DNA of 58,534 bases from an uncultured Gammaproteobacteria bacterium (GCA_964396145.1 CAYNEE010000003.1:1-58534), one strand, 5' to 3'. Shown: positions 1 through 29,002, counted from the first letter of the stretch. Made by a program: numbers and translations. Notes: generated from the sequence alone by a model not told the origin.

Positions 1-1014
1 CTTGATTTATCTGGGGTCAAATTAGTTCCCGACATTTTTGGTCTGAGCAAAAAAAGAATTGAACTTATTGAGGAAAACCTTCCGGAAAATTTTCACAGTC
101 AGCCTGCCCCCAACCGGGATATTCTCAGTCGCCTGAAAAACTTTTTAAACAAGAAACAAGTTTTATCTGACTATAATTTTCTTTTTTACCTCAGTGACGG
201 CTCTTCACCCTTTCTTTTTTCCAAAAAAAATTTTCTCCATGTTCAGGTTCCTTTTGTCACTAAATTCAATTCTTCCGAAAAATTTTTGAATTCTCTTAAG
301 GCTCGTTTTATTGACAAGGTTATCTGCAATTCTCAATTCACCTCTAAATTCCTAACCTCTTTTCCTGAAAATAAAATAACTGTTCTGTATCCTCCGGTAG
401 ATGTTGCCAAACTGGAGGGGGATGTAGACAAACAAAAAATAATCCTATCTGTAGGACGTTTTGACAATATCCTCAATGCCAAAAAACAGGATGTTCTCAT
501 TGAGGCTTTTATTAAGTTTTATAAAAAATCCCCCAAAACTGACTGGAAACTAGTTCTGGCTGGAGGTAGTCGGGAAGTTCCTGAAAAGAACAATTATTTG
601 ATTCATCTCCAGGAAATGGCTAAAGACTACCCTATTCATTTTGTCGTCAATCCCTCTTTTGAGGAATTAAAAAAGATATATGCCCGCTCCTCAATTTACT
701 GGCATGCTGCTGGTTTTGAGGTTGATGAATACCTTACTCCTGAGCAAACCGAACATTTTGGTATGACTGTGGTTGAGGCTATGGATTCTGGTCTCGTCCC
801 CCTGGTCGTCGCCAAGGGTGGTCTCACTGAAATTGTTGATAATGAAAAAAATGGTTTTCTATGGCAAACTATCGACGAGTTGGCTGCCAAGACACATCTG
901 TTAATTGCTACCCCCAAGACCCTCATGGAAATGTCTGAGAAAGCTCACGAAAGTGCCCAGGCTTTTTCCAAAGAAGTCTTTGCCGAAAGATTACTAAAAC
1001 TCATCAGGTCATGA
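1..1014 (+). CDS. GT4-family (GT-B) glycosyltransferase, 5' end cut by the window edge
   Basis: Frame 1 is open from nt 1, with no stop before the TTG at 286 used by the ORF track. The C-terminal motif EHFGMTVVEAMDSGLVPLVVAKGGLTEIV is typical of GT4 enzymes. Confidence 0.8.
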   Translation, partial: LDLSGVKLVPDIFGLSKKRIELIEENLPENFHSQPAPNRDILSRLKNFLNKKQVLSDYNFLFYLSDGSSPFLFSKKNFLHVQVPFVTKFNSSEKFLNSLKARFIDKVICNSQFTSKFLTSFPENKITVLYPPVDVAKLEGDVDKQKIILSVGRFDNILNAKKQDVLIEAFIKFYKKSPKTDWKLVLAGGSREVPEKNNYLIHLQEMAKDYPIHFVVNPSFEELKKIYARSSIYWHAAGFEVDEYLTPEQTEHFGMTVVEAMDSGLVPLVVAKGGLTEIVDNEKNGFLWQTIDELAAKTHLLIATPKTLMEMSEKAHESAQAFSKEVFAERLLKLIRS

Positions 1015-1883
1015 GAATTTCTCTGGTTGTTACTAATTGGAACGGTCTTGATTTGCTTAAAAAAAATCTTACCGAAATTATAGAAAAATCACCCGAAGTC
1101 TTAGAGATAATTGTTGCCGATGATGCTTCTACCGACCAGTCCCTGCCCTTTATTAAAAATCTCCAAAAGAAGTATCCCAAACTCACTTATCTAAAACACT
1201 CTCAAAACGTTGGTTTTGGTCGAAACCTTAATTCTGCCGTTAAAAAATCAAAAGGGGACTTAGTCGTAATTTTAAACAATGATATCCGCCCCCATAAAAA
1301 CTACATTAAAAACTCTCTCTCTCATTTTAAAGATCCAAAGGTCTTAGGTGTCACTTTTGCTGAGCTGGGCAACGAAAATTATGCCCGTTTTTTTTGGAAA
1401 CAGGGTTATCTCCAATTTGAAAAGGGCCGCTCTCAAAAGACTCACATTTCCGGTTGGCTCAATGGCGGCACCTCCATTGTTCGCAAAGATTATTTTCTAA
1501 AACTAGGTGGTTTTGATCACGTGTACGAGCCCTACTACTTTGAGGACTCAGATTTTGGTTTCCGTGCGTGGAAATCAGGCTATACTCTTCTTTGGGAGCC
1601 AAAAGCTGTGGTTGAGCACAAGCACGAATCTACCATGTCCCGACTTCCCAAAAAACATTTAATTTATGTCAAAGAGAGAAATCACTTAATTTTTACCAAA
1701 AGGAACATTACCAACAAGAGTCTTTTGTTCAAAAACAAAATTTTTTCTTTTCTTCGCATCCTTTCCGGTCCTAATTATTTAAAAATAATTCTTGCCGCCC
1801 GCCGTCAACTCAAAAAATACCCTGCCCCCATCGTCTTTCCCAAACGCACCGATATAGAGATTTTGAGAATGTTTAAAAAATGA
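1011..1883 (+). CDS. GT2-family glycosyltransferase (WbbL/rhamnosyltransferase-like subtype)
   Basis: Motifs ISLVVTNWNG, IIVADDASTDQS, NVGFGRNLNSAV, ILNNDI and EDSDFGFRAW. ATGA overlap with the upstream gene. Confidence 0.8.
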   Translation: MRISLVVTNWNGLDLLKKNLTEIIEKSPEVLEIIVADDASTDQSLPFIKNLQKKYPKLTYLKHSQNVGFGRNLNSAVKKSKGDLVVILNNDIRPHKNYIKNSLSHFKDPKVLGVTFAELGNENYARFFWKQGYLQFEKGRSQKTHISGWLNGGTSIVRKDYFLKLGGFDHVYEPYYFEDSDFGFRAWKSGYTLLWEPKAVVEHKHESTMSRLPKKHLIYVKERNHLIFTKRNITNKSLLFKNKIFSFLRILSGPNYLKIILAARRQLKKYPAPIVFPKRTDIEILRMFKK

Positions 1884-3193
1884 AATCATTTACCAATGTT
1901 TGGAAAATCTTGTTGATTATTTTTTTTTCCCTCCTATTAAGAATTTTTCTATCAAACGTCACTGTTCCTGTTGGCGATATTTTGGTTCACCAGGAATGGG
2001 CTAAAAGTTTATATCAAGAGGGGACCCGGGGTTCATATTTTCGTGAAGGCTGGACATATTCTCCGCCGACTCAACCATCACTCATGATGCTGGCTTATTC
2101 AGGCTCAAGATCAATTTATGAAAACAGAAATGTATTTTCTGCTATGCACAATCTTTTAAAAATTCCCCCTGCCTCTGTTTTATTGGGTTTTCAAAAATAT
2201 GGTCAAATTTTAACTTTGAAAATCTGGGAATTTTTAGCAACTCTAATTATCGCCTTCGTTTTCTATTTTTATTTTTCCAACCAAAAGTCATCAAAAATTG
2301 GTCTAATAATTTTTACTTTAATTTTATTTCACCCCATCTTAATTTTTACAAATTCCGTTTGGGGACAAAATGATTTGATACCGACCATGTTTGCTTATAT
2401 CTCCTTTCTTTTAATTTTTTCAAAGTACATTTACTATTCACCCATCATTTTTTTCTTGGGGGTTTTATTTAAGCCAACAATAATAGTTCTAACACCATTA
2501 TTTGCCATTGTATTTTTATTTTTCTATTTTAAAAACAAAAAAAATTTTTTAATCCTATTACCAATCATGTTGATAATCACAAGCTTTCTCTATCTTTCTT
2601 TTAAACCATTTATACCTACAGGGATTTCTCCTATTAATTACGTTCGAGACATTTACAATCACCGCATTAGTAATTCCTCAAAAGGATTAAATTTAGCCTC
2701 AGTTTCGGCTTTCAATCTTTATTCTTTATTATTTAACATCGATAAAACCTATGCCACTAAAACTCCACTGATCAGCATAGGTCTGCTCCTTTATATCCTG
2801 ATAAATGTAGTTTTCATTTATCATTTTTTAAAATCTAAAAATCATAGTTTTTCTCATTTACTTTTTACGATTTATTTTCTAGGCCAAGGCAGTTTTTTAC
2901 TTTTAACTAATATGTTAGAAAGATATTTTTTCCCGGCACTTTTAGCGAGCATTTTGATAATGGTTTTATATTGGAAAAAGTTTGGTCGGCTTATGCTTTT
3001 ACAACAATTAATTTGGTTTTTGAATTTAATTTACGCCTATTACCATCGTCAAAGCGAATTTATTAGTTATGTTTTCAAAGAAAATAACTTCATCTTTGTT
3101 CGTTTGTTGTCTTTTTGTAGTTTGCTAATTTTTTTCTTATTGACCAAAAAATATTTAATTTTAGTCAAATTTAAAAATGAAAAATTTTCTTAG
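1880..3193 (+). CDS. Polytopic GT-C-type membrane glycosyltransferase, HERY-motif family (Gpi18/ALG6-ALG8-like, COG5542-like), paralogue A
   Basis: More than 10 hydrophobic segments. Loop-1 motif GDILVHQEW, then YSPPTQPSLMMLAY, WGQNDLIPTMFAY and C-terminal NMLERYFFPALL. The same motif order occurs in 3177-5225 (C-terminal half) and 6864-8150. Confidence 0.55.
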   Translation: MKSFTNVWKILLIIFFSLLLRIFLSNVTVPVGDILVHQEWAKSLYQEGTRGSYFREGWTYSPPTQPSLMMLAYSGSRSIYENRNVFSAMHNLLKIPPASVLLGFQKYGQILTLKIWEFLATLIIAFVFYFYFSNQKSSKIGLIIFTLILFHPILIFTNSVWGQNDLIPTMFAYISFLLIFSKYIYYSPIIFFLGVLFKPTIIVLTPLFAIVFLFFYFKNKKNFLILLPIMLIITSFLYLSFKPFIPTGISPINYVRDIYNHRISNSSKGLNLASVSAFNLYSLLFNIDKTYATKTPLISIGLLLYILINVVFIYHFLKSKNHSFSHLLFTIYFLGQGSFLLLTNMLERYFFPALLASILIMVLYWKKFGRLMLLQQLIWFLNLIYAYYHRQSEFISYVFKENNFIFVRLLSFCSLLIFFLLTKKYLILVKFKNEKFS

Positions 3194-5225
3194 TATTATT
3201 ATCCCCACCTGGAATACCGCAGAAATTACTCTAAAATGTGTCCGATCTCTTCAAAAATATCTCAAAAATTTTCCTCACGAAATTATTATCGTTGATAATG
3301 CTTCTACTGATAATACAGTCGCAAAGTTTAAAAAAGAAAAGGGGATTGTCCTCATCCAAAATAAAAAGAACTTAGGTTTTGCTAAAGCCTGCAATATTGG
3401 ATCAAAAAAATCAAAAGGGGATTATCTCTTTTTTCTCAACTCCGACATGATAGCCCTCGATAATAGCCTCATTAAAATGTGCGAATACCTAAAAAATAAC
3501 CCTAAAATAGGCCTTATTGGTCCAAAGTATCTTAATATCGACCGATCAGTTCAGGGCTCTGTTTTTCCACCCCAAACTCCTCTTAATGCTTTGAAAGAAT
3601 TTTGGCTGGGAAAAAATGCTTACTCCAAATACTCTCCTCGGTCTAAAAAACCCATCGAAGTCCATTCCCTTTCCGGTGGAGCCATATTAATTTCTAAGAA
3701 GTTGTTTAATGAGGTTGGCGGTTGGGATGAGCGTTATTTTATGTACTTTGAAGACCTAGAACTTTGTCGTCAGATCAAAAAGTTAGGTTATAAAATTTTT
3801 TATTATCCACAGTGTCGCTTCGTCCACCGCCATGGCGCCAGTGGCCAAAAACTGGCTGACTCCAGCAACCAATGGCGTCGACTAGTTCCCAGTTCGAAAA
3901 TTTATCATGGACATCTTACACACTACTATCTCTTTTCAATAACCTGGCTCGCTCAAAAAATCAATAAATTAAACATTAAAAAAATTTTATTACTCGCATT
4001 TATTATAAGATTATTTTTACTTCCATGGATATATCACGGTGATATTACAGTAACTTATTGGTGGGGAAAATTTGCCGCCGAATTCACCTGGAGAGGTTAC
4101 TATGATTGGCTAAATTTTGGCGGATACGGTCGCCCTGACCAACCAATGCTAAATATCTTTTATGTTTGGCTTGTTCGTCTTTTTTATTTACTAGTCCACC
4201 AAATTATTTGGTTTATTAATGTAAATATTCCTGCTTTTCCCTCAAAAATAATGAGCTGGTTTTTCCTGCATGGCAACCAGGTTTTATTGAAACTACCCAT
4301 GATTATTGCGGATACCGCAATTATCTATTTTGTATATTCCTTTGTTAGCAAATCTTTGTCAAAAACTAAAGCAACTTTTGCTGCTATTTTTCTGGCACTT
4401 TATTTACCCATGATTTATAACAGTGCTCTTTGGGGGAGCGGAGATAGTATTATCAATCTCCTGGCTTTACTCGCTATTTATTTCCTTTATCATAAAAAAT
4501 ATCTTCTTTTTACTTTCCTCTTCCTTTGTTCTATTTTGTACAAGTTTTCTCTGGCTATATGGTCACCAGTAATTCTTACAATTCTTATTTATCAACGAAT
4601 TAAACTCGCAGACATTATTAAATCAGTTGGTCTTTCTGTAATTTTTATTTACCTAGTCTCTTTTCCTTTTGCCACAAAAAATCCTTTTATCTGGTTTTGG
4701 GAAACTATAACTCAAAAAATCATGCCCGGTGCAATGCCACAAATTACTTCTAATGCTATGAATTTCTGGGGAGTTATATTTGGATTGAAGCCGCGTCTTG
4801 ATGAAACTTTAGTTTTTAATCTTATTTCTTTTAGACAACTTTCCTTGTTAATTTGTCTAGTTTTTTACATTTATATCTGCGTAAAACTTTATAAAAACTT
4901 CTCCATTAAAAATGTTTTACTAACCCTGGTTCAAATTACTCTGGTAACCTTTACTTTCATGACCCGCATGCACGAGCGATATACCTATCCAGCCCTGATC
5001 CCTTTACTACTTTTATCGCTATATGATCGGAAGTTTTTTAAATACTTTATTATTTTATCTGTCACCCATTGTTTGAACGTATATAATTGGTGGTGGATCC
5101 CCAAAATCCCCTTTCTCATTACTTTACTTAAATCAGAAGTAACTACGAGAATTATTAGCCTAATTCAAACTTTATTAACAATTAGCCTCCTCTCGACAAA
5201 GTTATTTACCTCTAAAAATGAATAA
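3177..5225 (+). CDS. Bifunctional fusion: N-terminal GT2 glycosyltransferase (about aa 1-260) plus C-terminal HERY-motif GT-C membrane glycosyltransferase (about aa 262-682), paralogue B
   Basis: GT2 part: LSIIIPTWNT, IIIVDNASTDNT, NLGFAKACNIG, FLNSDM, FEDLELCRQIKKLGY. GT-C part: NIKKILLLAFIIRLF, HGDITVTYWW, GRPDQPMLNIFYVW, WGSGDSIINLLAL, RMHERYTYPALIPLL. No stop or start codon at the junction. Confidence 0.75.
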   Translation: MKNFLSIIIPTWNTAEITLKCVRSLQKYLKNFPHEIIIVDNASTDNTVAKFKKEKGIVLIQNKKNLGFAKACNIGSKKSKGDYLFFLNSDMIALDNSLIKMCEYLKNNPKIGLIGPKYLNIDRSVQGSVFPPQTPLNALKEFWLGKNAYSKYSPRSKKPIEVHSLSGGAILISKKLFNEVGGWDERYFMYFEDLELCRQIKKLGYKIFYYPQCRFVHRHGASGQKLADSSNQWRRLVPSSKIYHGHLTHYYLFSITWLAQKINKLNIKKILLLAFIIRLFLLPWIYHGDITVTYWWGKFAAEFTWRGYYDWLNFGGYGRPDQPMLNIFYVWLVRLFYLLVHQIIWFINVNIPAFPSKIMSWFFLHGNQVLLKLPMIIADTAIIYFVYSFVSKSLSKTKATFAAIFLALYLPMIYNSALWGSGDSIINLLALLAIYFLYHKKYLLFTFLFLCSILYKFSLAIWSPVILTILIYQRIKLADIIKSVGLSVIFIYLVSFPFATKNPFIWFWETITQKIMPGAMPQITSNAMNFWGVIFGLKPRLDETLVFNLISFRQLSLLICLVFYIYICVKLYKNFSIKNVLLTLVQITLVTFTFMTRMHERYTYPALIPLLLLSLYDRKFFKYFIILSVTHCLNVYNWWWIPKIPFLITLLKSEVTTRIISLIQTLLTISLLSTKLFTSKNE

Positions 5226-6852
5226 AAAAATAACCTTGGTGCTTTTGCTTATTTTCACCTTTTTAATCAGATTTTTGTTTCTTGACAAAAACCCACCCGC
5301 ACTTTTTTTTGATGAAGTTGACGCTGCTTACCAGGCTGAGATTTTTAACATGCAGCAAGGTGACTATTTTGGCAATAAGTATCCCGTCCATTTTCATTCC
5401 TTAGCTGATTGGCGCACTCCTTTATATATCTACTCTGTTTCTCTAGTCAAAACCGTTGTTAACCACCCGGAGATATCAGTTCGCCTTCCATCAGTCATTT
5501 TTAGCACTCTTTCGGTTTATTTCTTTTACCTTTTGACAAATTCATTTTTAGCTACCGCCCTCTTTAGTCTCAACCCTTGGTCCATACATTACGGACGCAG
5601 CGCTTTTGAAGTCTCAGGAATGCTTATGGCTCTTTTGGGAGGTTTCTATTATCTTAAAAAATATTTTACTAATTATCATCTTTTTTATTTATTTCTTTCC
5701 GTTTTATTCTTCATTCTAACGCCATATTTTTATAGTACTAGTAAAGCCTTCTTGGTTTTTTTGGCCCTCGGCATCTTAATCATTTACTGGCATCAATTAA
5801 AAAAAATACCTTTAAAACATTGGTTTATAGGCTTATTTTTATGTATCATTCTTTTAGCTCCACTTGGTCTAGATACACTTAATGGTCGTGCTGGTTTCCG
5901 ATTTTCTTATATAAACATATTTCATGATCCTCATAGTGCTGATAAAGTCAATTTTGAACGTTATAGTGACTATATTTTATCTTCGCCGTCGAGTCTTTTG
6001 TCATCAAAAATAAACCATAATAAAATTACCTTGGTTTTAAATCGCTTTATTAATAATTATTTTTCTGCATTTTCTACTGATTTTCTTTTTATTAGAGGAG
6101 ATAGTAATTCACGCCACGGTTTTGATGGACACGGTCTTTTCTATTATATTGATGCCTTATTAATTATTTTGGGACTGGTTGGTATTTATAAACAAAAAAA
6201 AGTTTCTGAAACGGACAAATTTTTCATTTTTCTACTCATTACTGCGCCTATTCCTTTTTCTTTGACTACTGATTCCACCGGTGGTCATGCCACCCGTTTA
6301 ATTTTAATGCTACCTTCTCTAATCTATCTGGTCTACCGTGGCGCCCTAATTGTTAAAAAAAGTTCCAAACTCCTTTTTAAAATATTGTTACTTGTATATT
6401 TAGTATCTGTATTTCACTTTTACCACTTCTATCGCTATGACTACCCACAGAAAAACGCTATGTACTGGCAAGCCAACGTAAAAGAATCCGTCGAGGCTAC
6501 AAAAAAATACTCTCAGCCAATTTACTTTTCTTCCTTTTATGAATCGTTCTTGCCATTTTTTTTATATTATCAACCCTATCTTCCTGTTGATGCCCCCAGC
6601 CTCCACTTACATCCAGTGGACAGCGACATAATCAGTGGTAGCAGCCTTGACAGCCATTACTTCTTTGGACATATAAAATGGAACAATTTTAATAAGATAT
6701 CCATACCACCAAGTATTTTTGTAGTTCCTGCCACTGAGCTGAGCCAGTTACCTTTAGATAAGAATCAACAACCTCTTCTAAAACAACTTGAATTTATACC
6801 CAAAAAATATATTAACTCACAAGACTTCTATATTTTTAGTTATGAAAAATAA
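5218..6852 (+). CDS. ArnT/PMT-type (PMT_2-like, GT39/GT83-like) GT-C glycosyltransferase, array copy 1
   Basis: Polytopic protein of 544 aa. Loop-1 FFDEVDAAYQAE, VRLPSVIF, FIRGDSNSRHGFDGHG, GGHATRL, and a C-terminal soluble domain. The architecture is shared with the five downstream copies. Confidence 0.7.
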   Translation: MNKKITLVLLLIFTFLIRFLFLDKNPPALFFDEVDAAYQAEIFNMQQGDYFGNKYPVHFHSLADWRTPLYIYSVSLVKTVVNHPEISVRLPSVIFSTLSVYFFYLLTNSFLATALFSLNPWSIHYGRSAFEVSGMLMALLGGFYYLKKYFTNYHLFYLFLSVLFFILTPYFYSTSKAFLVFLALGILIIYWHQLKKIPLKHWFIGLFLCIILLAPLGLDTLNGRAGFRFSYINIFHDPHSADKVNFERYSDYILSSPSSLLSSKINHNKITLVLNRFINNYFSAFSTDFLFIRGDSNSRHGFDGHGLFYYIDALLIILGLVGIYKQKKVSETDKFFIFLLITAPIPFSLTTDSTGGHATRLILMLPSLIYLVYRGALIVKKSSKLLFKILLLVYLVSVFHFYHFYRYDYPQKNAMYWQANVKESVEATKKYSQPIYFSSFYESFLPFFLYYQPYLPVDAPSLHLHPVDSDIISGSSLDSHYFFGHIKWNNFNKISIPPSIFVVPATELSQLPLDKNQQPLLKQLEFIPKKYINSQDFYIFSYEK

Positions 6853-6863
6853 GATTGTGTAAT

Positions 6864-8150
6864 ATGCTTCTCCCAAAAATTAAAATAGATATCAAAAAAA
6901 TCTTATTGTCGGCTTTTGTTTTAAGAATTATTTTAGTGTTTATATCCCAATCTCACCCTGACATATTAAACCACGTTGACTGGGGTAACCGCTTGCTGGA
7001 GCTTGGTCCCTATAAATTTTATGAAAATATTTTTTGGGGAGTCTCTTGGCCAAACCAACCTTTTGCCAGTATGTATCTTTTTGCTCTTATTAAACTTGTA
7101 CGCGATTTAATTTTCAATATTTTTTTGTTTTTAAACAATCAATTTTCCCTCTTTCCTTCTTTTGTTATTCCTGTTTTAGAGCAAAATTTACAAATTTGGT
7201 TGCTTAAACTGCCTTTTATTTTAGCCGATCTTGGTATTGCCTTTTTTGTTTATAAATTTTTAACTGAGAGAAAAAATAAACATGCACTTTTAGCCGCCAT
7301 CATGTTCCTTTTCAATCCGATTGTCATCTACAACTCAACCATCTGGGGACAAACTGACAGTCTCATTAATTTACTTATTCTGGCCGGATTTTACTTTGTC
7401 TATAAAAAACATTATTTTTTAGGAATTTTTCTAACTCTAATTTCTTTTACCTTTAAACTGTCTCTAATTATCTATTTACCTTTATTCTTAATTTTATTAT
7501 GGAAGCGTCGCAATGATTGGAAAAAAATATTATTCTCATTTTTGTTTACCTTTGTTACCATTGTTCTTTTGGCGTGGCCTTTTTCAATTTATCCCAATCC
7601 ACTCAAGTGGCTTCTCTATCTTTATCAAAACCGGGTTTTACCCCGACAGGGCAATATGCTCAACGGCAATGCCTTTAATTCTTGGTTTATCCTCTACGGC
7701 CCTGACTTTTCTCTTTCAGACTCTCTGCCACTCCTGGGTATAGCCGCCAAAAAAATCTCTTATGCTTTCACTATTATTGTTTTGTTTTTTATCTATTTAA
7801 AAATATTCATTAGAAAATCTACTTCTACTGATTTCATTTTTGCCCTCTTTTTGACTGCTTTTACCGCCTTTTTATTTTTAACCAATATGCATGAACGTTA
7901 TCTTTACCCTATCTTTCCATTGTTTAGTTTATTAATTTTTCTTATACCCAAATATTTTAATCTTAAACACCTGGTTATTATCAGTTTCATTCACTTACTC
8001 AATCTCTATAACCTTTGGTTTTATCCTCTTATCACCCCACTAAAATCTATTTTAATCTTTTCAGACTTCCTAGTCTGCAAAATTCTCAGTATAATTCTCT
8101 TAGTTTATTATGTTAAATACCTCTACGCCTATTTTAAGAAGAGTTACTAA
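6864..8150 (+). CDS. HERY-motif GT-C membrane glycosyltransferase, paralogue C
   Basis: I prefer the ATG at 6864 over the track's TTG at 6855. Motifs IDIKKILLSAFVLRII, HPDILNHVDWG, WPNQPFASMYLFAL, WGQTDSLINLLIL and NMHERYLYPIFPLF. It is closest to the C-terminal half of 3177-5225. Confidence 0.55.
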   Translation: MLLPKIKIDIKKILLSAFVLRIILVFISQSHPDILNHVDWGNRLLELGPYKFYENIFWGVSWPNQPFASMYLFALIKLVRDLIFNIFLFLNNQFSLFPSFVIPVLEQNLQIWLLKLPFILADLGIAFFVYKFLTERKNKHALLAAIMFLFNPIVIYNSTIWGQTDSLINLLILAGFYFVYKKHYFLGIFLTLISFTFKLSLIIYLPLFLILLWKRRNDWKKILFSFLFTFVTIVLLAWPFSIYPNPLKWLLYLYQNRVLPRQGNMLNGNAFNSWFILYGPDFSLSDSLPLLGIAAKKISYAFTIIVLFFIYLKIFIRKSTSTDFIFALFLTAFTAFLFLTNMHERYLYPIFPLFSLLIFLIPKYFNLKHLVIISFIHLLNLYNLWFYPLITPLKSILIFSDFLVCKILSIILLVYYVKYLYAYFKKSY

Positions 8151-9738
8151 AGTCAGGACATGTCTTATTTTATTTTTATTGGCATTTTTTCTCCTCCGTT
8201 TTTCATTTATCAACAACACCCCTCTATTTGGAGATGAAATCGATGTCGGTAATCAGGCTTATTCTCTCCTAAAGACAGGTCGTGACTATCGAGGTAACTT
8301 ATTTCCTACCTATATCCAATCATTTTCAGAGTCACGAGCTCCTCTTTTAATGTACCTCACCATTCCTTTTATTGCCATTTTTGGGCAAAATTCTTTAGGG
8401 GTGAGACTACCTCCCTTGCTTTTTTCCTTACTAGCTTTGTACTTCTTTTATCTCTTGGTAAAAAAGGTCTCAAAAAATAAACCATTGGCTTTGATTGCCG
8501 TTTTTATTATGGGAACTTCACCGATATTTTTTCATTACTCTGCCCTGGCTTTTGAATCAAGTTTATTATTGCTACTAGTACTGGCCGGAACTTATTATTA
8601 CTTGGAAAATAAATGGTTACTTTCCTTTATGTTATTTGCTTTATCTTTTTATACCTACAATACGGCTAATGTTTTTACGCCCCTGATTTTACTTTTTCTT
8701 TTCATAAGTCACCTCAAAAAAATTAAAAACTATAAAAGATTTTTTCTATCCACTCTCCCGGCTCTATTTTTGCTGTTACCTCTTATCTATCAAATTGTCT
8801 TTGGTTCAGCCGCCAGCCGCTTTTCCTTAATCAGCATTTTTGGCCATCAAAACACTGAAACTGTTGAAATCAAGCGCTCAAGCGCCCCCAATCCTTATTC
8901 TATTTCTGAAAAGATTTTTCACAATCGACCTCGTGAAATTGTTCAAGTCTTTTTAAAAAATTATCTGACCTCTTTTTCTCCCCAAACACTCTTTATCAGT
9001 GGTGATTCCAATCCCCGCCACTCCGTCCCCGGCTTTGGGTTTTTATTGTTATCCCTGGCTCTATTATCACCCCTGATATTCCTTTCAAAACCCAATAAAT
9101 TATTTATCTATTGGCTTTTCATCGCTCCCATAGCTTCTTCGCTTACTCTAAACGGTGGCGAGCATGCCACTCGACTTTTTATAATTATACCTGCCATCGT
9201 CTATCTTTATTCATTGGCTTTTTCCATACTTTGGTCAAAATCAAAAACTATTTCTTATTTATTTTTAATAGCCCTGATTTTTTGCTTTCTTTCTTTTTTA
9301 CACGAGTACCGGACTCATTACCCAAAAGACCATTACCAGTCCTGGGGCTACGGTTATCAGGAGGTTTTTCAAAACGAAGATCTAAAAAATTATCCACTTT
9401 ATATCTCCAACCCAAATTACAATTTACTTAACCCCTACCTTTTTTATCAAAAGCCGGATTTAAGAATTCTCCAATCCGGTTTTATAGATCAACCCAAATT
9501 CTTAACAGACGGCTTGGAGGGCTATGAGCTGGGCCAGGCCCGTTTTATTATTAATTGGCATGGCGACACTCTTGAAACTATCAAAAATATAGCCAAACCA
9601 GGTGATATCTTTGTCTTGACCCAATTAAAAGACATCCCTGGCGATATGATTTTAGACAAATTCACTGGTTTCAATCTTATTAATGTTATAAAAACACCAC
9701 TAGATCAACCTCTCTACCAAATTATCCAAAAACAATGA
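8110..9738 (+). CDS. ArnT/PMT-type GT-C glycosyltransferase, array copy 2
   Basis: FGDEIDVGNQAYSLLKTGRDYRG, VRLPPLLF, FISGDSNPRHSVPGFG, GEHATRL. The start is uncertain because the 8110 ATG overlaps the upstream gene by 41 nt. Confidence 0.7.
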   Translation: MLNTSTPILRRVTKVRTCLILFLLAFFLLRFSFINNTPLFGDEIDVGNQAYSLLKTGRDYRGNLFPTYIQSFSESRAPLLMYLTIPFIAIFGQNSLGVRLPPLLFSLLALYFFYLLVKKVSKNKPLALIAVFIMGTSPIFFHYSALAFESSLLLLLVLAGTYYYLENKWLLSFMLFALSFYTYNTANVFTPLILLFLFISHLKKIKNYKRFFLSTLPALFLLLPLIYQIVFGSAASRFSLISIFGHQNTETVEIKRSSAPNPYSISEKIFHNRPREIVQVFLKNYLTSFSPQTLFISGDSNPRHSVPGFGFLLLSLALLSPLIFLSKPNKLFIYWLFIAPIASSLTLNGGEHATRLFIIIPAIVYLYSLAFSILWSKSKTISYLFLIALIFCFLSFLHEYRTHYPKDHYQSWGYGYQEVFQNEDLKNYPLYISNPNYNLLNPYLFYQKPDLRILQSGFIDQPKFLTDGLEGYELGQARFIINWHGDTLETIKNIAKPGDIFVLTQLKDIPGDMILDKFTGFNLINVIKTPLDQPLYQIIQKQ

Positions 9739-11363
9739 AAAAATTAGCCGTAATTTTAATTATCCTTTTAGGCTTTTTTTTACGTTTATATAAACTGGGA
9801 GAATTACCTAATAGCTTTACCCCGGATGAAGTTGCCCAGGGCTACACCGCCTACTCGCTTTTAGAAACAGGTCGGGATGAATGGGGGAGCCGTAATCCTT
9901 TTATTCTGCGCTCTTTTGGTGACTTCAAGGCCCCCCTTCAAACCTGGCTGATAATGCCCTCAATTAAAGTTTTTGGTCTGACCCCCTTTGCCATCCGCCT
10001 CCCTAACGCCCTTCTGTCTTCATTTGCCCTGCTTACCACTTATTTACTCACTAATCTACTCTTCAACTCTTTTCCTATTTCCATTTTTACTCTCCTGCTT
10101 TTAGCTATCTCTCCATGGCATTTACCCATGTCTCGATTGGCTCTGGAGGCGAACCTCACAGTTTTCTTTTCCTCGTTTGCCACCTATATATATCTAAAAA
10201 ATCCCAAATCTCCTAAATTCCAACTATTGGCTTCTTTATTTTATTCTCTAAATTTATTTACCTATCATTCGGCCAAATTTTTTACACCATTTTTAATCCT
10301 TTTTACTTACTTATATGTTCATCAGCCCCAAAACCTTAAACCTTTTTTTGTTTCTCTTAAAAAAAATATTTATTTAATTCTGCCTTTCACTTTATTCTTT
10401 ATACTAAATGCTTTCTACTCCCTCTTCTCTTCCGCCCGGGTGGGCGATGTCTCTATTTTCAATCCCACCGATCGCTGGAGCGGTCTTTCCTTTGACCGCT
10501 ACCTTCTCGTTCAAAATTATCTTCCCGACCTTATTTCCCGAATTTTTAATAACAAGATATTTTATATAATTAAAAACTTTGGTAATTCTCTTCTTTCTTA
10601 TTTTTCTCCTCAGTTTTTGATATCTCAGGGCGCTGGAGAGACTACTTATGGTATGCTTCCGGGCTTTGGTGTCTTGGGCTTAATCCCAACCATCGGTTTA
10701 ATCTACGCCATTTACTTAATCTTCAAAAAAAATAACCCTCACCGTCAGACTTTGGTCTATATTTTGGCGCTAGTTTTAGTCGCTTCTATTCCCGCAGCTC
10801 TGGCCAAAGGCAGCTACCCTGGCAATCGCCTAGCCTCAATGCTTCCTTTTATCTTAATTCTTTCCGCCTACGGCCTGTATAAAATATTTAGCCATTCTCG
10901 TAGTTTGTTTCTAGTTTCTAGTATCTTATTTCTTACCTCTACCTCTTCCTTTTTAGCTGCCTATTTCTTCGGCGCCAACCACCGCCTTTCCGATGGCATG
11001 CTCTATGGCCGTCGTCAAGCGGTAGAATATATCCAGTCCCGCAATCCTTCAGCCAAAATTCTTTTTAGTCGCTCTCTTTCTCAACCCCAGGCCTACTATA
11101 CTTTTTTTGCTAAAACTGATCCCAAATTAGTCCAGGCCGCCTCTCCAGAGTGGTTAAACTATCAAAAAGAAAATAAAAACTTTTTAGACCAGTTAGGTGA
11201 ATATCATCTAGATAATATCACCTTTGGTAACATTTCCCGCGAATCTTTCAGAGATTTTGATTTTGTCGTCGGCAAGCCTGATGAATTTGTCGATATCAAG
11301 CCACAGAAAATTATTTACCATCCCAATTCTCAAAAAGCCTCTCTTTATATTTATGAAAAATAA
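9735..11363 (+). CDS. ArnT/PMT-type GT-C glycosyltransferase, array copy 3
   Basis: TPDEVAQGYTAYSLLETGRDEWG, FGDFKAPL, IRLPNALL. Polytopic, with a C-terminal soluble domain. ATGA overlap with copy 2. Confidence 0.75.
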   Translation: MKKLAVILIILLGFFLRLYKLGELPNSFTPDEVAQGYTAYSLLETGRDEWGSRNPFILRSFGDFKAPLQTWLIMPSIKVFGLTPFAIRLPNALLSSFALLTTYLLTNLLFNSFPISIFTLLLLAISPWHLPMSRLALEANLTVFFSSFATYIYLKNPKSPKFQLLASLFYSLNLFTYHSAKFFTPFLILFTYLYVHQPQNLKPFFVSLKKNIYLILPFTLFFILNAFYSLFSSARVGDVSIFNPTDRWSGLSFDRYLLVQNYLPDLISRIFNNKIFYIIKNFGNSLLSYFSPQFLISQGAGETTYGMLPGFGVLGLIPTIGLIYAIYLIFKKNNPHRQTLVYILALVLVASIPAALAKGSYPGNRLASMLPFILILSAYGLYKIFSHSRSLFLVSSILFLTSTSSFLAAYFFGANHRLSDGMLYGRRQAVEYIQSRNPSAKILFSRSLSQPQAYYTFFAKTDPKLVQAASPEWLNYQKENKNFLDQLGEYHLDNITFGNISRESFRDFDFVVGKPDEFVDIKPQKIIYHPNSQKASLYIYEK

Positions 11364-12903
11364 AATTATCTTACTTCTGATTATTCTCTCGGGTCTTTTT
11401 TTTAGACTTTGGCAGATAAATTCTCTACCGCCCTCTCCAAATTGGGACGAAGTTTCTCTTGGTTACAATGCCTATTCCATCCTCAAAACCGGCAAAGACG
11501 AGTGGGGGAACTATCTACCTTTAATTTTTCGAGCTTATGGCGACTATAAATTACCGGTCTATGTTTATGCCTTAGTTCCTTTTATTGCCATTTTTGGACT
11601 TCATTCCTGGTCGATTAAAATTATTTCTATCCTTGCTGGTACCGCCCTCATCTATATTGCCTATCTAACCACGAAAAAAATCACTAAATCTGAAAATATT
11701 GCCCTAATTTTCGCCGCTTTAATTGCTTTTAGCCCCTGGTCTATTTTTCTCTCCCGGATTGCGCTTGAGGCCAATCTTTTTTTGCTGCTTTTTGCTCTTT
11801 CTTTTTATTTTCTTGTCTCCAAAAAACTATTACCCTCCACCTTCTTTTTTGCGCTCTCGCTTTTTACCTACAATAGCTCCCGGGTATGGCTGCCCTTCTA
11901 TTTAATTGCTCTCGGCTGCACAATTTATGCTCAAAAAATAAAATTTAAAATTATTGATTTTCTCCCTCTAGTGCTTTCAGCAATTATTCTCATTTTCCAA
12001 TTCAGCAATCAGTCTGCCACTGCCCGCTATCAATGGGTGTCCATCCTCGACCAAGGAGCTGTTAACCGTATTAACGAACTGCGCAGTACTTATCCTCGCT
12101 ATCTAGTTAACAAGGTTACATATTTTATTTTCGAAGCTGGCAAAAATTACCTCAGTCACTTTAATCCTCTATATCTTTTTAAAACCGGTGGCTCCCATTA
12201 CCAATTCAACATCCCCAACTTTTATCTTCTCCTGCCAGTTCTTATCATTTTTTTTATTCTTGGCCTTTACTACTTATTTACTCATCTAAAACACTCTTCG
12301 TTTTTATTATTATTGTTTTTTCTTTTTGTCTCTCCTCTCCCCTCAGCTATTACCCGTGATGCGCCCCACATTCTCAGAGGTCTAACTTTTGTCTATTTTT
12401 CTACTTTAATTATCTCCCTGGGCTTTTCTTCTTTCAAAAAATACACTTCAATTGCCATAATTCTTCTTTTTTTGAGTGTTTTTCTTTCATTTTGGCCCAA
12501 ATACAGGGATTATTCCCGTCAATACTCCCAAAGCTGGCAGTATGGTTATCGGGAAGCAATTGACTATCTCAAAGACAATTATTCTCTCTACGATGAAATA
12601 ATTGTGACTAAAAAGTACGGTGAAGCTCATGAATTTGTTTTATTTTATTGGCCTTGGAATCCTAAAATCTATCAGGAGGACTCCAAAAAAAGCTGGAACT
12701 ATCACTCTGAGTGGTACTGGGTTGATTCTTTTGATAAATTCAAATTCCTAGATGACCGGGATATTAAAAATTTTAACCCTCATAGCACCCATACTCTGTT
12801 AATTACTACCCCCGGCAACTATAATTTAAACAAGTTTAAAAAAGTTAAAACTATTTACTTTTTGGACCAAACACCCGCCTTTGATATTGTCGTTCATGAA
12901 TAA
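11353..12903 (+). CDS. ArnT/PMT-type GT-C glycosyltransferase, array copy 4
   Basis: I chose the internal ATG at 11353 (MKNKIILLLIILSG), which matches the N-termini of the paralogues. The track's 11224 start would run 140 nt into copy 3. Motifs NWDEVSLGYNAYSILKTGKDEWG and YGDYKLPV. Confidence 0.75.
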   Translation: MKNKIILLLIILSGLFFRLWQINSLPPSPNWDEVSLGYNAYSILKTGKDEWGNYLPLIFRAYGDYKLPVYVYALVPFIAIFGLHSWSIKIISILAGTALIYIAYLTTKKITKSENIALIFAALIAFSPWSIFLSRIALEANLFLLLFALSFYFLVSKKLLPSTFFFALSLFTYNSSRVWLPFYLIALGCTIYAQKIKFKIIDFLPLVLSAIILIFQFSNQSATARYQWVSILDQGAVNRINELRSTYPRYLVNKVTYFIFEAGKNYLSHFNPLYLFKTGGSHYQFNIPNFYLLLPVLIIFFILGLYYLFTHLKHSSFLLLLFFLFVSPLPSAITRDAPHILRGLTFVYFSTLIISLGFSSFKKYTSIAIILLFLSVFLSFWPKYRDYSRQYSQSWQYGYREAIDYLKDNYSLYDEIIVTKKYGEAHEFVLFYWPWNPKIYQEDSKKSWNYHSEWYWVDSFDKFKFLDDRDIKNFNPHSTHTLLITTPGNYNLNKFKKVKTIYFLDQTPAFDIVVHE

Positions 12904-14521
12904 AAAACATTTTATACTTTTAATTTTTATAACTCTTTTAGCCTTTGCTTTTAGGATCTATCGGGTCAATTCTTATCCGCCGCTTTTGTGGGATGAAGCC
13001 GCCATTGGTTACAATGCTTATTCCATCCTTAAAACCGGCCGTGATGAACATGGGGCTTTTTTGCCACTCATTTTCAAATCTTTTGGCGACTACAAACCAG
13101 GAATATACATATACCTAACCGTACCCTTTGTTGCCCTCTTTAATCTCGATCCCTTAGCTGTCCGACTCCCCTCGGTTATCGCCGGTTCTCTCTTACCTCT
13201 GCTTTTATATTTTCTCATCAAAACTATCTCTCCCAAATCTGAAAAACAGGCCATTATTGCCGCTATTTTAATTGCCTTTAATCCCTGGAATATTCACTTT
13301 TCTCGTGGCGGCTGGGAAACCAATTTACTTACCTTTGAACTGCTTCTAGGTGCTCTTCTCTTTATCAAAAAACATTATTTGCCGTCTTCTCTCATTTTTG
13401 CTCTTAGTCTATACACCTATCAGGCAGGCAAAATGATTACCCCTTTAATTATTGGAAGTCTTTTTATCTACCAATTTACCATCCTTAAAATAAATTTTAA
13501 AAACATTTTTTTAAAATTTATCCTGCCTCTATTTCTGCTCTCATTGCCCATCGCTTATGGTCTGCTTTTCTCTTCCGACAGCAACCGACTCAAAGTTTTA
13601 TCTCTAAGTTCTTATCCTCGCTCACAAGAGGAAACTGATTTAATTATCAAAGAATCAAGTCTTCTTGATTATAAAATTTTTCACAGTCAACCAATATTTT
13701 TTGCCAGAAACTTTCTTTCCCGTTATTTCAACCATTTTTCCACCCGCTTTCTTCTCTTTGAAGGGGACTGGCAAAACCTGCGTCATTCTGCCCCATATAT
13801 CGGCGTTATTCTCTACCCATCTTTCATTTTTTTAATTATTGGACTACTTAACTACTCATCTAGTTCTCTGTTTTTTCTGCTCTGGCTTTTACTCGCTCCC
13901 ATCCCCGGCGCTTTGACCCGCGACACCGTCACTGCTGTCCGGACTATGTCTATGTCCATTCCTCTTATTTATTTTGCTGCGCTTGGCCTTAGCAAGACTT
14001 TGGCTTATCTTAAAACTCATAAATTCTTTTTTTACTTTCCCATTTATTTATTTATCCTTTTTACCTATCTCCTCTCTTTTTCCTATTATCAGGACCTTTA
14101 TTACCATCATATGATTCAAAAAGATCCTGATCAACTACTTTATGGCTATGAACAGGCAGTAAAATATGTTCTGGCCAACAAGGAAAAATATCAAAATAAA
14201 CAAATCTATTTTACCGATTTTTATGGACAACCTTATATTTATTACCTCTTTTTCTCAAAATACCCCCCCGAGCTTTATCAAAAACAATCCCATTTAGTTG
14301 AAAATTCTCAGGGTGACACTGGTACCGTCAAACAAATAGATAATCTCAACTTCCGAACTGCTCACTTTGATTTCATAAGAGAAAACCCTGGAGCTTTAGG
14401 TATTTTTGCTCAGGAAGAGGTTTATCGTCAAGGTTTGGAATCCCGTCCTGAGTTCAAAAAATTTATCCCTCTTAGTCCGATTAATACTATTTCCACTTTT
14501 TATGCTTACCACCAAGATTAA
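12896..14521 (+). CDS. ArnT/PMT-type GT-C glycosyltransferase, array copy 5
   Basis: ATG at 12896 (MNKKHFILL). Motifs LWDEAAIGYNAYSILKTGRDEHG, FGDYKPG, VRLPSVIAG and FEGDWQNLRHSAPY. Confidence 0.75.
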   Translation: MNKKHFILLIFITLLAFAFRIYRVNSYPPLLWDEAAIGYNAYSILKTGRDEHGAFLPLIFKSFGDYKPGIYIYLTVPFVALFNLDPLAVRLPSVIAGSLLPLLLYFLIKTISPKSEKQAIIAAILIAFNPWNIHFSRGGWETNLLTFELLLGALLFIKKHYLPSSLIFALSLYTYQAGKMITPLIIGSLFIYQFTILKINFKNIFLKFILPLFLLSLPIAYGLLFSSDSNRLKVLSLSSYPRSQEETDLIIKESSLLDYKIFHSQPIFFARNFLSRYFNHFSTRFLLFEGDWQNLRHSAPYIGVILYPSFIFLIIGLLNYSSSSLFFLLWLLLAPIPGALTRDTVTAVRTMSMSIPLIYFAALGLSKTLAYLKTHKFFFYFPIYLFILFTYLLSFSYYQDLYYHHMIQKDPDQLLYGYEQAVKYVLANKEKYQNKQIYFTDFYGQPYIYYLFFSKYPPELYQKQSHLVENSQGDTGTVKQIDNLNFRTAHFDFIRENPGALGIFAQEEVYRQGLESRPEFKKFIPLSPINTISTFYAYHQD

Positions 14522-16831: not shown

Positions 16832-17888
16832 GGTCGGCATCGACGTCAGCCCCCTTAGCGATGGCAATTCCAAAAGGGGAGTCGGCTACTATACCCGCCA
16901 CCTAGTTGAGGCTCTTCAAAAAGAAATTAAAAATAACCCTGATTATCAGCACTATCAAATTCATTTAATTGAAGATTCTAGACTTAAGACTGAAGATTTT
17001 GATCTTATCCACTATCCCTATTTTGACCCTTTCAAGCTGACCTTACCTCCTACCACTAAACCCTACGTTGTCACTTGTCACGACCTCATTCCTCGCGCTT
17101 TTAAAAAACATTTCCCTGTTGGTGTAAAAGGAGAAATAAAATGGCTCATTCAAAAATATCGTTTACAAAATTCCGACTATATAATTTGCCCATCGCATTC
17201 GGCTAAATATCAAATTCTTGACCAAATTAAATATCCCGCCGAAAAAATATATGTGACTTACGAGGCTGCCTCTTCTAATTTTAAGCCTCGCCCTCTCAGT
17301 TCTAAATTAAAAAATATTTTTAAAAAATATAAATTGCCTAAAAAATTTGTCCTATTTGTCGGTGATGTCAATTGGAATAAAAATGTCCCTGGGCTCGCTA
17401 AAGCCTGTATAGCTCTTAAATACCCTCTAATTATCGCTGGCGGTGCCGCCACCAAAGAGGTTCCCGACCACCCTTGGACTCAAGACATCCTTTGGCTTCA
17501 ACGTCAACGGTCTCCTTTTTTAAAACTGCTTGGTTTTGTACCAGATGAAGACTTAACCCTACTCTATAATTTAGCTACCATATATTGCCAACCTTCTTTT
17601 TCTGAGGGCTTTGGTCTGCCTCTGGTTGAAGCCATGCAGTCAGGTACACCCGTGGCTTACTCTCAGGAAAGTTGCCTACCTGAAATTATGGATTTTTCTG
17701 GAGAATTTTTTAATCCTTACTCTCAAATTTCCATAAAAAGGGCTCTAAAAAAGCTCTGGAATTCACCTCAGCTGCGACGTGAATGCTCCATTTTAGGCCA
17801 AAAAAGAGCTCAATTTTTCTCTTGGCAAAGCACAGCCTTGTCTACACTAGCTGTTTATAAACTAGTCGAATTTGATGAAAAAAAATAA
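16818..17888 (+). CDS. GT4-family glycosyltransferase
   Basis: I prefer the ATG at 16818 (MKKFKVGIDV) to the TTG at 16806. Motif EGFGLPLVEAMQSGTPVAYSQESCLPEI. Confidence 0.8.
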   Translation: MKKFKVGIDVSPLSDGNSKRGVGYYTRHLVEALQKEIKNNPDYQHYQIHLIEDSRLKTEDFDLIHYPYFDPFKLTLPPTTKPYVVTCHDLIPRAFKKHFPVGVKGEIKWLIQKYRLQNSDYIICPSHSAKYQILDQIKYPAEKIYVTYEAASSNFKPRPLSSKLKNIFKKYKLPKKFVLFVGDVNWNKNVPGLAKACIALKYPLIIAGGAATKEVPDHPWTQDILWLQRQRSPFLKLLGFVPDEDLTLLYNLATIYCQPSFSEGFGLPLVEAMQSGTPVAYSQESCLPEIMDFSGEFFNPYSQISIKRALKKLWNSPQLRRECSILGQKRAQFFSWQSTALSTLAVYKLVEFDEKK

Positions 17889-18678
17889 AAGTCATTTCCT
17901 TTCAGTTATTATTCCTGCCTACAAACAAGCTAAAACCATTAAAAAAGACCTCCGTCATATTCATAGCACACTGGAAAAAATCCGCTATCCCTACGAAATG
18001 CTGGTTGTGGTAGACGGTACCACTGTAGATACTACTTATAAACTGGCCAAACAATTAAATCTAAGTAACCTAAAAATTCTTGGTTACCCGAGTAATCATG
18101 GTAAGGGCTACGCTCTCCGCTATGGTATGGCTCGAGCCAAAGGTGACTATGTTGCCTTTATTGATGCCGGTATGGAGATTGACCCCAATGGTATTTCTAT
18201 GCTTTTGGAGCACATGGAATGGTATGACGCTGACATTATCATCGCCTCTAAGCGTCACCCCGCTTCTCAAGTGGCTTATCCGCTCCAGAGAAAAATTATC
18301 AGTAAACTTGCTCAAATTTATTCAAAAGTTTTTCTTGACTTAAATTTAACCGACACTCAGGCTGGTTTAAAAATTTTTAAAAGAGAAGTTTTGGAAAAAG
18401 TTTTACCTCGTCTTTTAGTCAAAAACTATGCCATTGATTTAGAGATGCTCTCAGTCGCAAAGCATCTTGGCTTTAAAAAAATTTATGAAGCCCCGATAAA
18501 ACTAAATTATGATTTTGATAGTCTGACCCACGCCACCGGTCTCAAAATAATTTTTAATAGTTTTAGGGATGCTATGGCTATTTTTTATCGTCTTCGGATG
18601 TTGCATTATTACGACGATAAAAACCATCGTCGTTGGCGCTTTGACAAAGAATTAAAAATGAAAGTCAACACCGGATGA
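17875..18678 (+). CDS. GT2 polyprenyl-phosphate sugar synthase-like protein (DPM1/GtrB/ArnC-like)
   Basis: LSVIIPAYKQAKTI, LVVVDGTTVDTT, GKGYALRYGMARAKGDYVAFIDAGMEIDP and TDTQAGLKIFKREVL. This is the D..G(F/L)K motif of DPM1-type enzymes. Confidence 0.6.
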   Translation: MKKNKSHFLSVIIPAYKQAKTIKKDLRHIHSTLEKIRYPYEMLVVVDGTTVDTTYKLAKQLNLSNLKILGYPSNHGKGYALRYGMARAKGDYVAFIDAGMEIDPNGISMLLEHMEWYDADIIIASKRHPASQVAYPLQRKIISKLAQIYSKVFLDLNLTDTQAGLKIFKREVLEKVLPRLLVKNYAIDLEMLSVAKHLGFKKIYEAPIKLNYDFDSLTHATGLKIIFNSFRDAMAIFYRLRMLHYYDDKNHRRWRFDKELKMKVNTG

Positions 18679-29001: not shown

Positions 29002-29002
29002 A

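Follow-up and report, generated by a model that had tools for sequence, protein, structure and literature searches.

The glycosyltransferases (GTs) that act on the lumenal side of the endoplasmic reticulum (ER) have been described as enzymes without prokaryotic homologues detectable by BLAST, hidden Markov models (HMMs) reaching only proteins of the PMT and DUF2029 types (Lombard 2016, PMC4973528). In ALG6, D69 is the catalytic base (PMC12653191) and H378 has been reported to be essential (PMC10859629); the residue roles that we use for this enzyme are drawn from reviews and later papers. A bacterial counterpart in mechanism is PimE, with the triad D58/K195/H322, in which the Lys is essential and the His, in contact with the donor phosphate, can be lost with an only partial defect (H322A; PMC12041525). 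Here we analyse three genes, called ORF A, ORF B and ORF C (ORF, open reading frame), in a stretch of 58,534 nucleotides from an uncultured Gammaproteobacteria bacterium (GCA_964396145.1, CAYNEE010000003.1:1-58534), which as a whole is referred to as the window. The products of A and C and the C-terminal part of B are most probably integral-membrane glycosyltransferases of the GT-CA type, nearest to ALG6/ALG8 (GT57) and PIG-M/Gpi14 (GT50), which would work outside the cytoplasm with polyprenyl-phosphate sugars and by inversion, and build a surface glycan.

Three paralogous genes and their conserved residues

The three genes were found where the original prediction had placed them. ORF A (1880..3193, + strand; 437 amino acids, aa) encodes a stand-alone ALG6-like GT-C protein with D33 (nucleotides 1976-1978), WGQND at residues 161-165 (2360-2374), K198 (2471-2473), N279 and the late motif E347-R348-Y349 (2918-2926). 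ORF B (3177..5225, +; 682 aa) is composite, with an N-terminal GT2 domain of the GT-A fold (3177..3965, +; residues 1-263), placed in the cytoplasm, and a C-terminal ALG6-like GT-C domain (3966..5225, +; residues ~265-682, the 418 C-terminal residues), and its key residues are D289 (in HGD, 4035-4049), WGSGD at 419-423, K456, NAMN at 526-529 and MHERY at 598-602 (4968-4982). ORF C (6855/6864..8150, +) is again a stand-alone ALG6-like GT-C gene, which gives 431 aa from a TTG at 6855 and 428 aa from an ATG at 6864, the shorter form with the start at 6864 being the one in the public collection; it carries D36 (6960-6962), WGQTD at 164-168 (7344-7358), K201 (7455-7457), N275 and H346-E-R348-Y (7890-7901).

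BLASTP aligns A with C at 26% identity over 344 aa (E 6e-25), residues 271-653 of B with C at 34% over 390 aa (E 5e-46), and A with B at 25% over 368 aa (E 3e-10). The similarity is far above chance and extends across essentially the whole membrane domain, and by sequence A, C and the C-terminal half of B are true paralogues, as had been proposed. The four motifs listed with that proposal stand in the same order in all three proteins: (G/P)D-I-(L/T)...W at residues 31-35 in A, 287-291 in B and 34-38 in C; a Pro-rich PxQP at 62-67, 319-324 and 65-70; WG(Q/S)xD at 161-165, 419-423 and 164-168; and M(L/H)ERY at 345-349, 598-602 and 345-349. At least six further motifs are common to them, namely K-(L/I)-(P/W), (N/H/L)P, (F/Y)K, PF, (N/S)A(F/M)N and LN, and together the three carry ten motifs in the same order. 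A maximum-likelihood tree of 55 sequences has three clades, with support of 100/99-100 and one window protein in each: ORF A, with its MLERY variant, in clade A (support 100/99), the GT-C domain of ORF B in clade B and ORF C in clade C. Identity to orthologues reaches 64% for A (to the homologue P0122), 69% for B and 57% for C, and as judged from these sequences the three are ancient paralogues and not recent duplicates.

Conservation was counted among 120 representatives of different 50%-identity clusters and is given in the numbering of C. D36, G165, K201 and R348 are invariant (120/120 each), W43, N275 and N383 are each present in 119/120, and Q166 in 114/120; position 168 is acidic in 117/120, and E347 is found in 111/120 with Asp in 8 more. 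The acidic residue that had been singled out in loop 1 is thus fully conserved. It is a single invariant Asp in external loop 1 (EL1), preceded by G, P, F or S, and position 34 is H, S or N, never Asp. The HERY motif, whose conservation was to be tested, keeps its Arg in 120/120 and not its His, the position being H in 82/120 and L in 29/120, with Leu throughout clade A.

Comparison with profiles and predicted structures

Profiles against the Protein Data Bank (PDB), Pfam scans of the individual family members and Foldseek stood in for a comparison of HMM against HMM. As a single sequence C gave only a local match to PIG-M in the PDB (1.7e-6), and ALG6 surfaced with profiles only. A profile of 31 sequences, all orthologues of C, found GPI mannosyltransferase I (GPI-MT-I; GPI, glycosylphosphatidylinositol) at 3e-10 and ALG6 at 1e-3, one of 38 sequences from all three clades found ALG6 alone (8e-6), and one of 120 sequences, again representatives of different 50%-identity clusters, found yeast ALG6 at E 1e-11 (profile 28-394 of 426, chain 86-447) and three GPI-MT-I chains at 5e-11 to 1.3e-10, with no other match at E<=1. 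The numbering of the deposited ALG6 chain is offset by 18 from the native one. In the alignment the family gD falls on native G68-D69 and mhERY on V377-H378-E379-K380, the consensus PNYPPL on LDYPPL, iKpt on FKQM and AfNfW on VANFW; K201 is aligned with the FK motif of ALG6, and R348 is placed by the alignment next to H378-E. One and the same offset yields both of the residue numbers in the literature, D69 and H378, and this serves as an internal check on the alignment. The resemblance to the DYPP and HVHEK signatures of ALG6/ALG8 that was first noticed by eye can therefore be followed residue by residue (D69, LDYPPL and QVH378EK) in the solved structure that the profile matches best, with the reservation that the Pro-rich segment of the window proteins themselves is P(T/D/N)QP and not (N/D)YPP.

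ORF B has the GT2 domain (PF00535) and, as its only GT-C match in Pfam and NCBIfam, a sub-threshold PMT_2 (0.021). When 55 homologues were scanned one by one, GT87 was matched by 5/55 (best 2.6e-9), PMT_2 by 2/55, and PIG-U (2.1e-7), ALG3 and Mannosyl_trans4 by 1 each, all of these matches being sub-threshold. Mannosyl_trans2, the PIG-V model, had no match in 31 members at E<=10 nor in 55 at E<=0.01, and the PIG-M model of Pfam had none among the 31 and 55 members scanned. The window proteins did not match the GT87 and PF26314 models, PF26314 being seen only as precomputed "faint" hits of homologues. At the level of Pfam the Gpi18-like or COG5542 label that had been suggested for the three proteins is thus unsupported; the sub-threshold matches go to Alg6_Alg8, GT87, PMT_2, PIG-U and ALG3. 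In public collections homologues are named "Gpi18-like mannosyltransferase" (JGI), "hypothetical protein" or occasionally "GT39", and a literature search on "Gpi18-like" and COG5542 found no paper.

An AlphaFold2 (AF2) model of C, built on 31 sequences, has a mean predicted local distance difference test score (pLDDT) of 89.6 and a predicted TM-score (pTM) of 0.90. The structural check that had been called for came out in favour of the GT-C assignment: Foldseek against the PDB puts ALG6 first (E 3.6e-8, TM-scores 0.67/0.61), Gpi14/PIG-M follows at 3.7e-5 (0.61/0.64), ALG3 is found at 1.4e-2, and ALG9, the STT3 subunit of oligosaccharyltransferase (OST) and ArnT at 0.04-0.07 (ArnT 0.07), with PglB above 1. 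The best ten matches are all of the GT-C fold (ALG6, Gpi14, ALG3, ALG9 twice, OST, ArnT and PIG-U three times), and transporters come at E>0.7 with TM-scores below 0.25. No chain of PimE, Emb or Aft appeared in the profile search (E<=1) or among the best 50 Foldseek matches (E<=5.3), the presence of these chains in the libraries being unconfirmed. On the strength of the model, the family lies nearer to the ER-lumenal GT57/GT50 branch than to the bacterial GT-Cs of known structure among the matches.

In the model, EL1 (residues 31-69) has helices at 37-50, 52-55 and 59-62, with D36 just before the first of them, and EL4 (244-297) has helices at 249-267 and 276-286. The density of Lys and Arg over the 120 sequences is 0.24-0.38 per residue at the N-terminus, at 137-143, 184-186, 216-223, 320-323 and 364-371 and at the C-terminus, and 0-0.09 per residue in EL1, at 164-168, in EL4 and at 389-393; in two short outer turns the only basic residues are the invariant K201 and R348, besides R, K or N at position 344. 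The segments poor in Lys and Arg hold all of the conserved motifs, which places these on the extracytoplasmic face. The predicted layout is one of about 12 transmembrane (TM) helices with both termini inside, like that of Gpi14 (PMC12653191), and the N-terminus is fixed independently by ORF B, in which the GT2 domain fused before TM1 must be cytoplasmic.

Several points weigh against placing the three proteins with ALG6 as active enzymes. A and C have no match to Pfam or NCBIfam even at E<=1. Alg6_Alg8 is matched by 8/55 homologues, sub-threshold, with 3.4e-7 as the best value; by sequence the window proteins, which stay below the Pfam threshold of this model, are remote relatives of GT57 and not members of it. 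Identity to ALG6 is about 19%, and the root-mean-square deviation (RMSD) is 6-7 Å at TM-scores of 0.6-0.67, so the geometry of the active site is not fixed by the match to ALG6. Helix 70-96 of the model is hydrophobic and would, if it crossed the membrane fully, invert the proposed topology; this topology requires that the helix be juxtamembrane or re-entrant within EL1. Finally, the third best structural match to C is PIG-U (2.4e-4), a non-catalytic subunit with the GT-C fold, and clade A, ORF A included, is entirely MLERY and has Leu at the position of the His378 that is essential in ALG6.

The last two points could be taken together to mean that one or more of the copies, and those of clade A without the His especially, are non-catalytic scaffolds or substrate-binding subunits, as PIG-U is in the GPI transamidase, and the single homologue with a match to the PIG-U model of Pfam would fit with this. 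We regard it as highly improbable. PIG-U has lost the catalytic acidic motif, with SSW in place of DxD (PMC12653191), whereas D36, K201 and R348 are kept in 120/120 homologues, clade A included. The equivalent His-to-Ala mutant of PimE is partly active (PMC12041525), and since clade A also keeps the other invariant residues, its Leu is better seen as a variation specific to the clade than as a sign of inactivity. A Leu that is fixed across a large and old clade, in which all other motifs are retained, speaks for altered specificity and not for decay.

Gene neighbourhood and fusions

The window has a GC content of 0.24-0.40 and consists, from base 1 to ~58 kb, of a near-unbroken series of glycan-biosynthesis genes, mostly on the same strand. 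Immediately upstream of A, with an ATGA overlap, is a gene for a GT2 protein of 290 aa (1011..1883, +; Pfam match), which is 27% identical to the GT2 domain of B and has orthologues of 290/291 aa in two related loci, L001 and L004; its place near the A gene is conserved in relatives. The gene that separates B and C (5218..6852, +; 544 aa) is the first of six ArnT/PMT_2-like GT-C genes, the others spanning 8110-16058. Its product has no direct match in Pfam, and the family HMM gave none either; it is putatively assigned as ArnT/PMT-like by its layout, being about 540 aa long and opening with FFDEVDAAYQ, which can be compared with FGDEIDVGNQ and TPDEVAQGYT in the two genes that follow. The ArnT-like neighbours at 8110-9738 and 9735-11363 have PMT_2/PMT matches. 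The family HMM picks out exactly A, B and C in the window at E < 1e-119, and the ArnT-like genes score 1e-7 to 6e-16, a similarity at the level of the clan; these scores are far below those of A, B and C, and the two GT-C families are therefore distinct. The overlaps are 4 nucleotides between the GT2 gene and A, 17 between A and B, 8 between B and the ArnT-like gene and 41 between C and the next ArnT-like gene, and the junction of the ArnT-like gene with C is a gap of 2-11 nucleotides. All junctions overlap or abut, as had been described for the interleaving with the ArnT-like array.

Similar arrangements are found in the relatives. In L001 the order is GT4, GT2 (291 aa), a 158-aa ORF, PMT_2, PMT_2, A, GT2 (267 aa), C and then at least five genes for proteins of ~530-550 aa each, three of them with PMT_2 matches. 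In L004 a Wzx-like flippase is followed by GT2, GT2, GT2, GT4, GT2 (290 aa), GT2 (273 aa), A, B and PMT_2 genes. Small unannotated ORFs lie within this conserved block of GT2 and GT-C genes, at 6645-7121 in L001 (158 aa) and at 12718-13032 on the - strand in L004 (104 aa), and in the window the corresponding genes have no such ORF between them.

The gene for the stand-alone GT2 protein of 267 aa in L001 overlaps the C-type GT-C gene that follows, and the protein is 59% identical to the GT2 domain of B. Orthologues of B are mostly stand-alone proteins of 420-435 aa, and the fused form is also found in P0179 and P0235/L005. In relatives GT2 and GT-C stand side by side as separate genes, and in ORF B the two are thus fused into one. 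An assembly artefact was ruled out by the identical 681-aa protein P0179 on another contig and by the fused P0235/L005, 55% identical. Fusions of GT2 and GT-C occur in at least four other clusters, one of them C-type (P0110). Two proteins from Microgenomates, P0282 (812 aa) and P0285 (1026 aa), have an ALG6-like domain fused to a complete PMT (GT39 + PMT_4TMC), and P0348 (878 aa) has two ALG6-like domains in tandem; every ALG6-like domain of P0282 and P0348 has WGQxD, the invariant Lys and MHER(Y/H), and P0285 was seen by Pfam scan only. The conserved synteny and the natural fusions of HERY proteins to PMT support that two GT-C families and a GT2 work on one product, which for the two GT-C families was what had been suggested from the window alone.

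The GT2 domain of B matches Glycos_transf_2 of Pfam at 1.1e-25 and, at near full length and below the cutoff, the rhamnosyltransferase model TIGR01556 at 6e-20. Its AF2 model has a pLDDT of 84, and the best 50 Foldseek matches are all catalytic domains of polypeptide GalNAc-transferases (ppGalNAc-T, GT27), with query TM-scores of 0.65-0.78 (0.74-0.78 for the leading matches). We also note a motif like that of Gal/GalNAc-transferases, GGWDE...FEDLEL, and an invariant His217. The domain was considered as a polyprenyl-phosphate-sugar synthase, and this was rejected, since its best model is of rhamnosyltransferase type and its best 50 structures are ppGalNAc-T and not DPMS or GtrB. From the models we take it to be a nucleotide-sugar-dependent elongating GT-A domain and not a donor synthase.

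This likeness to polypeptide GalNAc-transferases, the fusions to a genuine PMT in P0282 and P0285, the interleaving with PMT_2-like genes and the GT39 name that NCBI gives to some homologues could all point to protein glycosylation, in which case A, B and C would transfer sugar to Ser/Thr or another residue of secreted, S-layer or pilin proteins, much as PMT and TMTC do. It is an improbable alternative. The similarity to GalNAc-T is generic to GT-A folds with the Gal/GalNAc-T motif, and the large number of PDB entries inflates it; the proteins do not have the lumenal MIR or TPR domain for protein binding, and their nearest relatives, ALG6 and PIG-M, act on lipid-linked glycans. The locus, with its ABC-2 exporter, Wzy_C protein, UDP-glucose dehydrogenase, epimerase and many GT2 and GT4 genes, is also mostly of polysaccharide type.

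Other genes of the locus fit into the same picture. A GT2 protein of 268 aa like DPM1, GtrB and PpgS (17872..18678, +) is a candidate polyprenyl-phosphate sugar synthase, with NCBIfam matches to PpgS (1.1e-14, 4-201 of 226), ArnC (1.6e-9) and AglJ (2e-11), all below the equivalog cutoffs, and by these matches it is likely to provide the nine GT-C proteins encoded in the locus with their lipid-linked donor. A Wzy_C protein of O-antigen polymerase/ligase type (48635-50017, +), an LPG_synthase_TM membrane protein of MprF flippase type (41833-42756, -) and an ABC-2 exporter, a Wzm/Wzt pair (28201-29749, +), are all present, and one locus thus has parts of more than one route of export and polymerisation. 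It also has an epimerase/dehydratase, several methyltransferases and a B12-radical SAM enzyme besides the UDP-glucose dehydrogenase and the GT2 and GT4 genes, and this content fits a complex envelope glycan. In the part with the lowest GC (0.24-0.28) lie a large polytopic protein (31598-33544, -) with DUF7657 (2.3e-75) and DUF7654 (1.1e-27), and a 590-aa protein without a Pfam match (33519-35291).

Another alternative, for which the Wzx-like flippase in relatives of the locus would speak, is that the three proteins act as polymerases or ligases of the Wzy kind, which move whole repeat units linked to polyprenyl diphosphate and not single sugars from polyprenyl-monophosphate donors. In Actinoplanes missouriensis, ImpE, a protein with 11 TM helices assigned to the Alg6_Alg8 superfamily in the CDD, is encoded in a cluster with GT4, GT2 and Wzx genes, its null mutant is defective, and a role as Wzy has been proposed (PMC12691653); moreover, some GT-CA enzymes (PglB/STT3) use diphosphate-linked donors. 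We find this quite improbable, because the window has a Wzy_C protein of its own, three paralogues together with six ArnT-like genes are too many for a single polymerase role, the structurally nearest enzymes, ALG6 and Gpi14, take their sugars from monophosphate donors, and a candidate polyprenyl-phosphate-sugar synthase is present in the operon.

Distribution of the family

Among 1.84 billion cluster representatives at 50% identity, the family comprises 1,573 clusters at E<=1e-30, a number that rises to 5,526 at E<=1e-10. The homologues with more than 45% identity number in the hundreds and are nearly all from Patescibacteria of the Microgenomates group (Shapirobacteria, Woesebacteria). The window, too, is taken to come from a bacterium of the candidate phyla radiation. 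A protein of 515 aa from Moorella sp. E306M (P0289), which NCBI names "glycosyltransferase family 39 protein", has DYPPL, WGQVD, KPQ, NAFNF and MHERY. With the full set of motifs in Moorella, a cultivable genus of Firmicutes, the family is not confined to Patescibacteria.

Discussion

The mechanism that we propose draws, for catalysis, type of donor, acceptor and order of steps, on analogy with ALG6, Gpi14, ALG3/9/12 and PimE and with the general scheme of GT-CA enzymes (PMC12653191, PMC13503287, PMC12041525). The invariant Asp of EL1 (D33 in A, D289 in B, D36 in C), at the start of the first helix of the loop, would be the general base that deprotonates the hydroxyl of the acceptor. The donor would be a polyprenyl-phosphate-monosaccharide, with its phosphate held by the invariant Lys (K198 in A, K201 in C) and the Arg of (H/L)ERY (R348), and in clades B and C the His of HERY may assist in binding it. 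Transfer would be inverting and probably independent of metal, as in ALG6 and PimE, and proceed on the external side of the membrane. The DPM1/PpgS-like GT2 protein at 17872-18678 probably makes the donor. As acceptor, a surface glycan linked to lipid or to the wall is most likely, begun in the cytoplasm by the GT4 and GT2 proteins of the locus and then exported. Once it is outside, each of the three paralogues and six ArnT/PMT-like GT-Cs could attach a residue or form a linkage of its own, and the GT2 domain fused to B would serve the same pathway from the cytoplasmic side.

An alignment with ALG6 over the whole length, with the catalytic positions kept, gives this bacterial family some evolutionary interest, even if the similarity is remote, and makes it relevant to the question of where the ER-lumenal glycosyltransferases came from. 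We can speculate, although it is rather unlikely, that the family is the closest prokaryotic sister of GT57 and GT50 and that Microgenomates run an ER-like assembly line on both sides of the membrane. Such a line would have cytoplasmic GT2 and GT4 steps, a flip and many GT-C steps on the outer face with lipid-phosphate sugars, and the GT2::GT-C and GT-C::GT-C fusions would couple the faces. If it were true, the half of lipid-linked oligosaccharide and GPI biosynthesis that takes place in the lumen would have a model in bacteria, and possibly its evolutionary origin. Apart from this, a large family escapes Pfam and NCBIfam and is loosely named in public collections, and with its nearest relatives fixed it can be better annotated. 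The invariant Asp of EL1, the Lys and the Arg are, together with the topology, ready targets for mutagenesis. The large loci for envelope glycans in Microgenomates are also shown to bring together two GT-C families and a dedicated GT2.

Of the known systems, ALG6/ALG8 (GT57; PF03155; 6SNH) is the best match both by profile and by structure and has the same GT-CA fold. It shares the Asp in EL1 (D69), (D/N)YPPL, the FK motif, ANFW/AFNFW in EL4 and H-E-(K/R) after TM9/10, and the same chemistry would be expected, an inverting transfer from a lipid-phosphate-sugar donor on the non-cytoplasmic face. The differences are that ALG6 has 14 TM helices and 544 residues against about 12 and 430 in the family, that its HEK is replaced by a motif with Arg for Lys and then an invariant-to-common Tyr/His, with Leu for His in clade A, and that it has HFQYN where the family has WGQxD. 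The family is moreover bacterial, has several paralogues in one polysaccharide locus and is sometimes fused to GT2 or PMT.

PIG-M/Gpi14 (GT50; 9WNO, 23GF/23GX) is the second-best match (5e-11 by profile, 3.7e-5 by Foldseek). At 390-431 aa, with 12 TM helices and a long EL1 and EL4, it is more alike in size and layout, and there is a local likeness in K-L-P-x-I-L-x-D ... L-F-N-P ... FK. PIG-M has DxD, whereas EL1 of the family has a single Asp, and no conserved motif of PIG-M lines up with the HERY region. It also requires a partner, PIG-X/Pbn1, and no conserved gene for a single-pass partner of this type was found in the three loci examined.

PimE, MptA/MptB and MptC/D (GT87/DUF2029, PF26314) are bacterial GT-CA enzymes which use polyprenyl-phosphate-mannose to extend a membrane-anchored glycan on the outside, and which occur as several paralogues. 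D58/K195/H322 of PimE parallel D36/K201/H346-R348 of the family; the set of motifs and the range are different, the family being found in Microgenomates and some Firmicutes. PIG-V/Gpi18 (GT76; COG5542) belongs to the same GT-C superfamily, but ALG6/8 and PIG-M are closer. ImpE resembles the window proteins in its gene cluster, which, like the relatives of the locus, includes GT4, GT2 and a Wzx-like protein (PMC12691653), a likeness by description and not by sequence, and it differs in being present as a single copy for which its authors propose the role of Wzy (PMC12691653). Our literature search found no other bacterial membrane protein of the Alg6_Alg8 superfamily with a genetic phenotype. 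The three proteins are thus best assigned to a bacterial GT-CA family that is uncharacterised and has ALG6/ALG8 and PIG-M as its nearest relatives; the kind of enzyme is already known.

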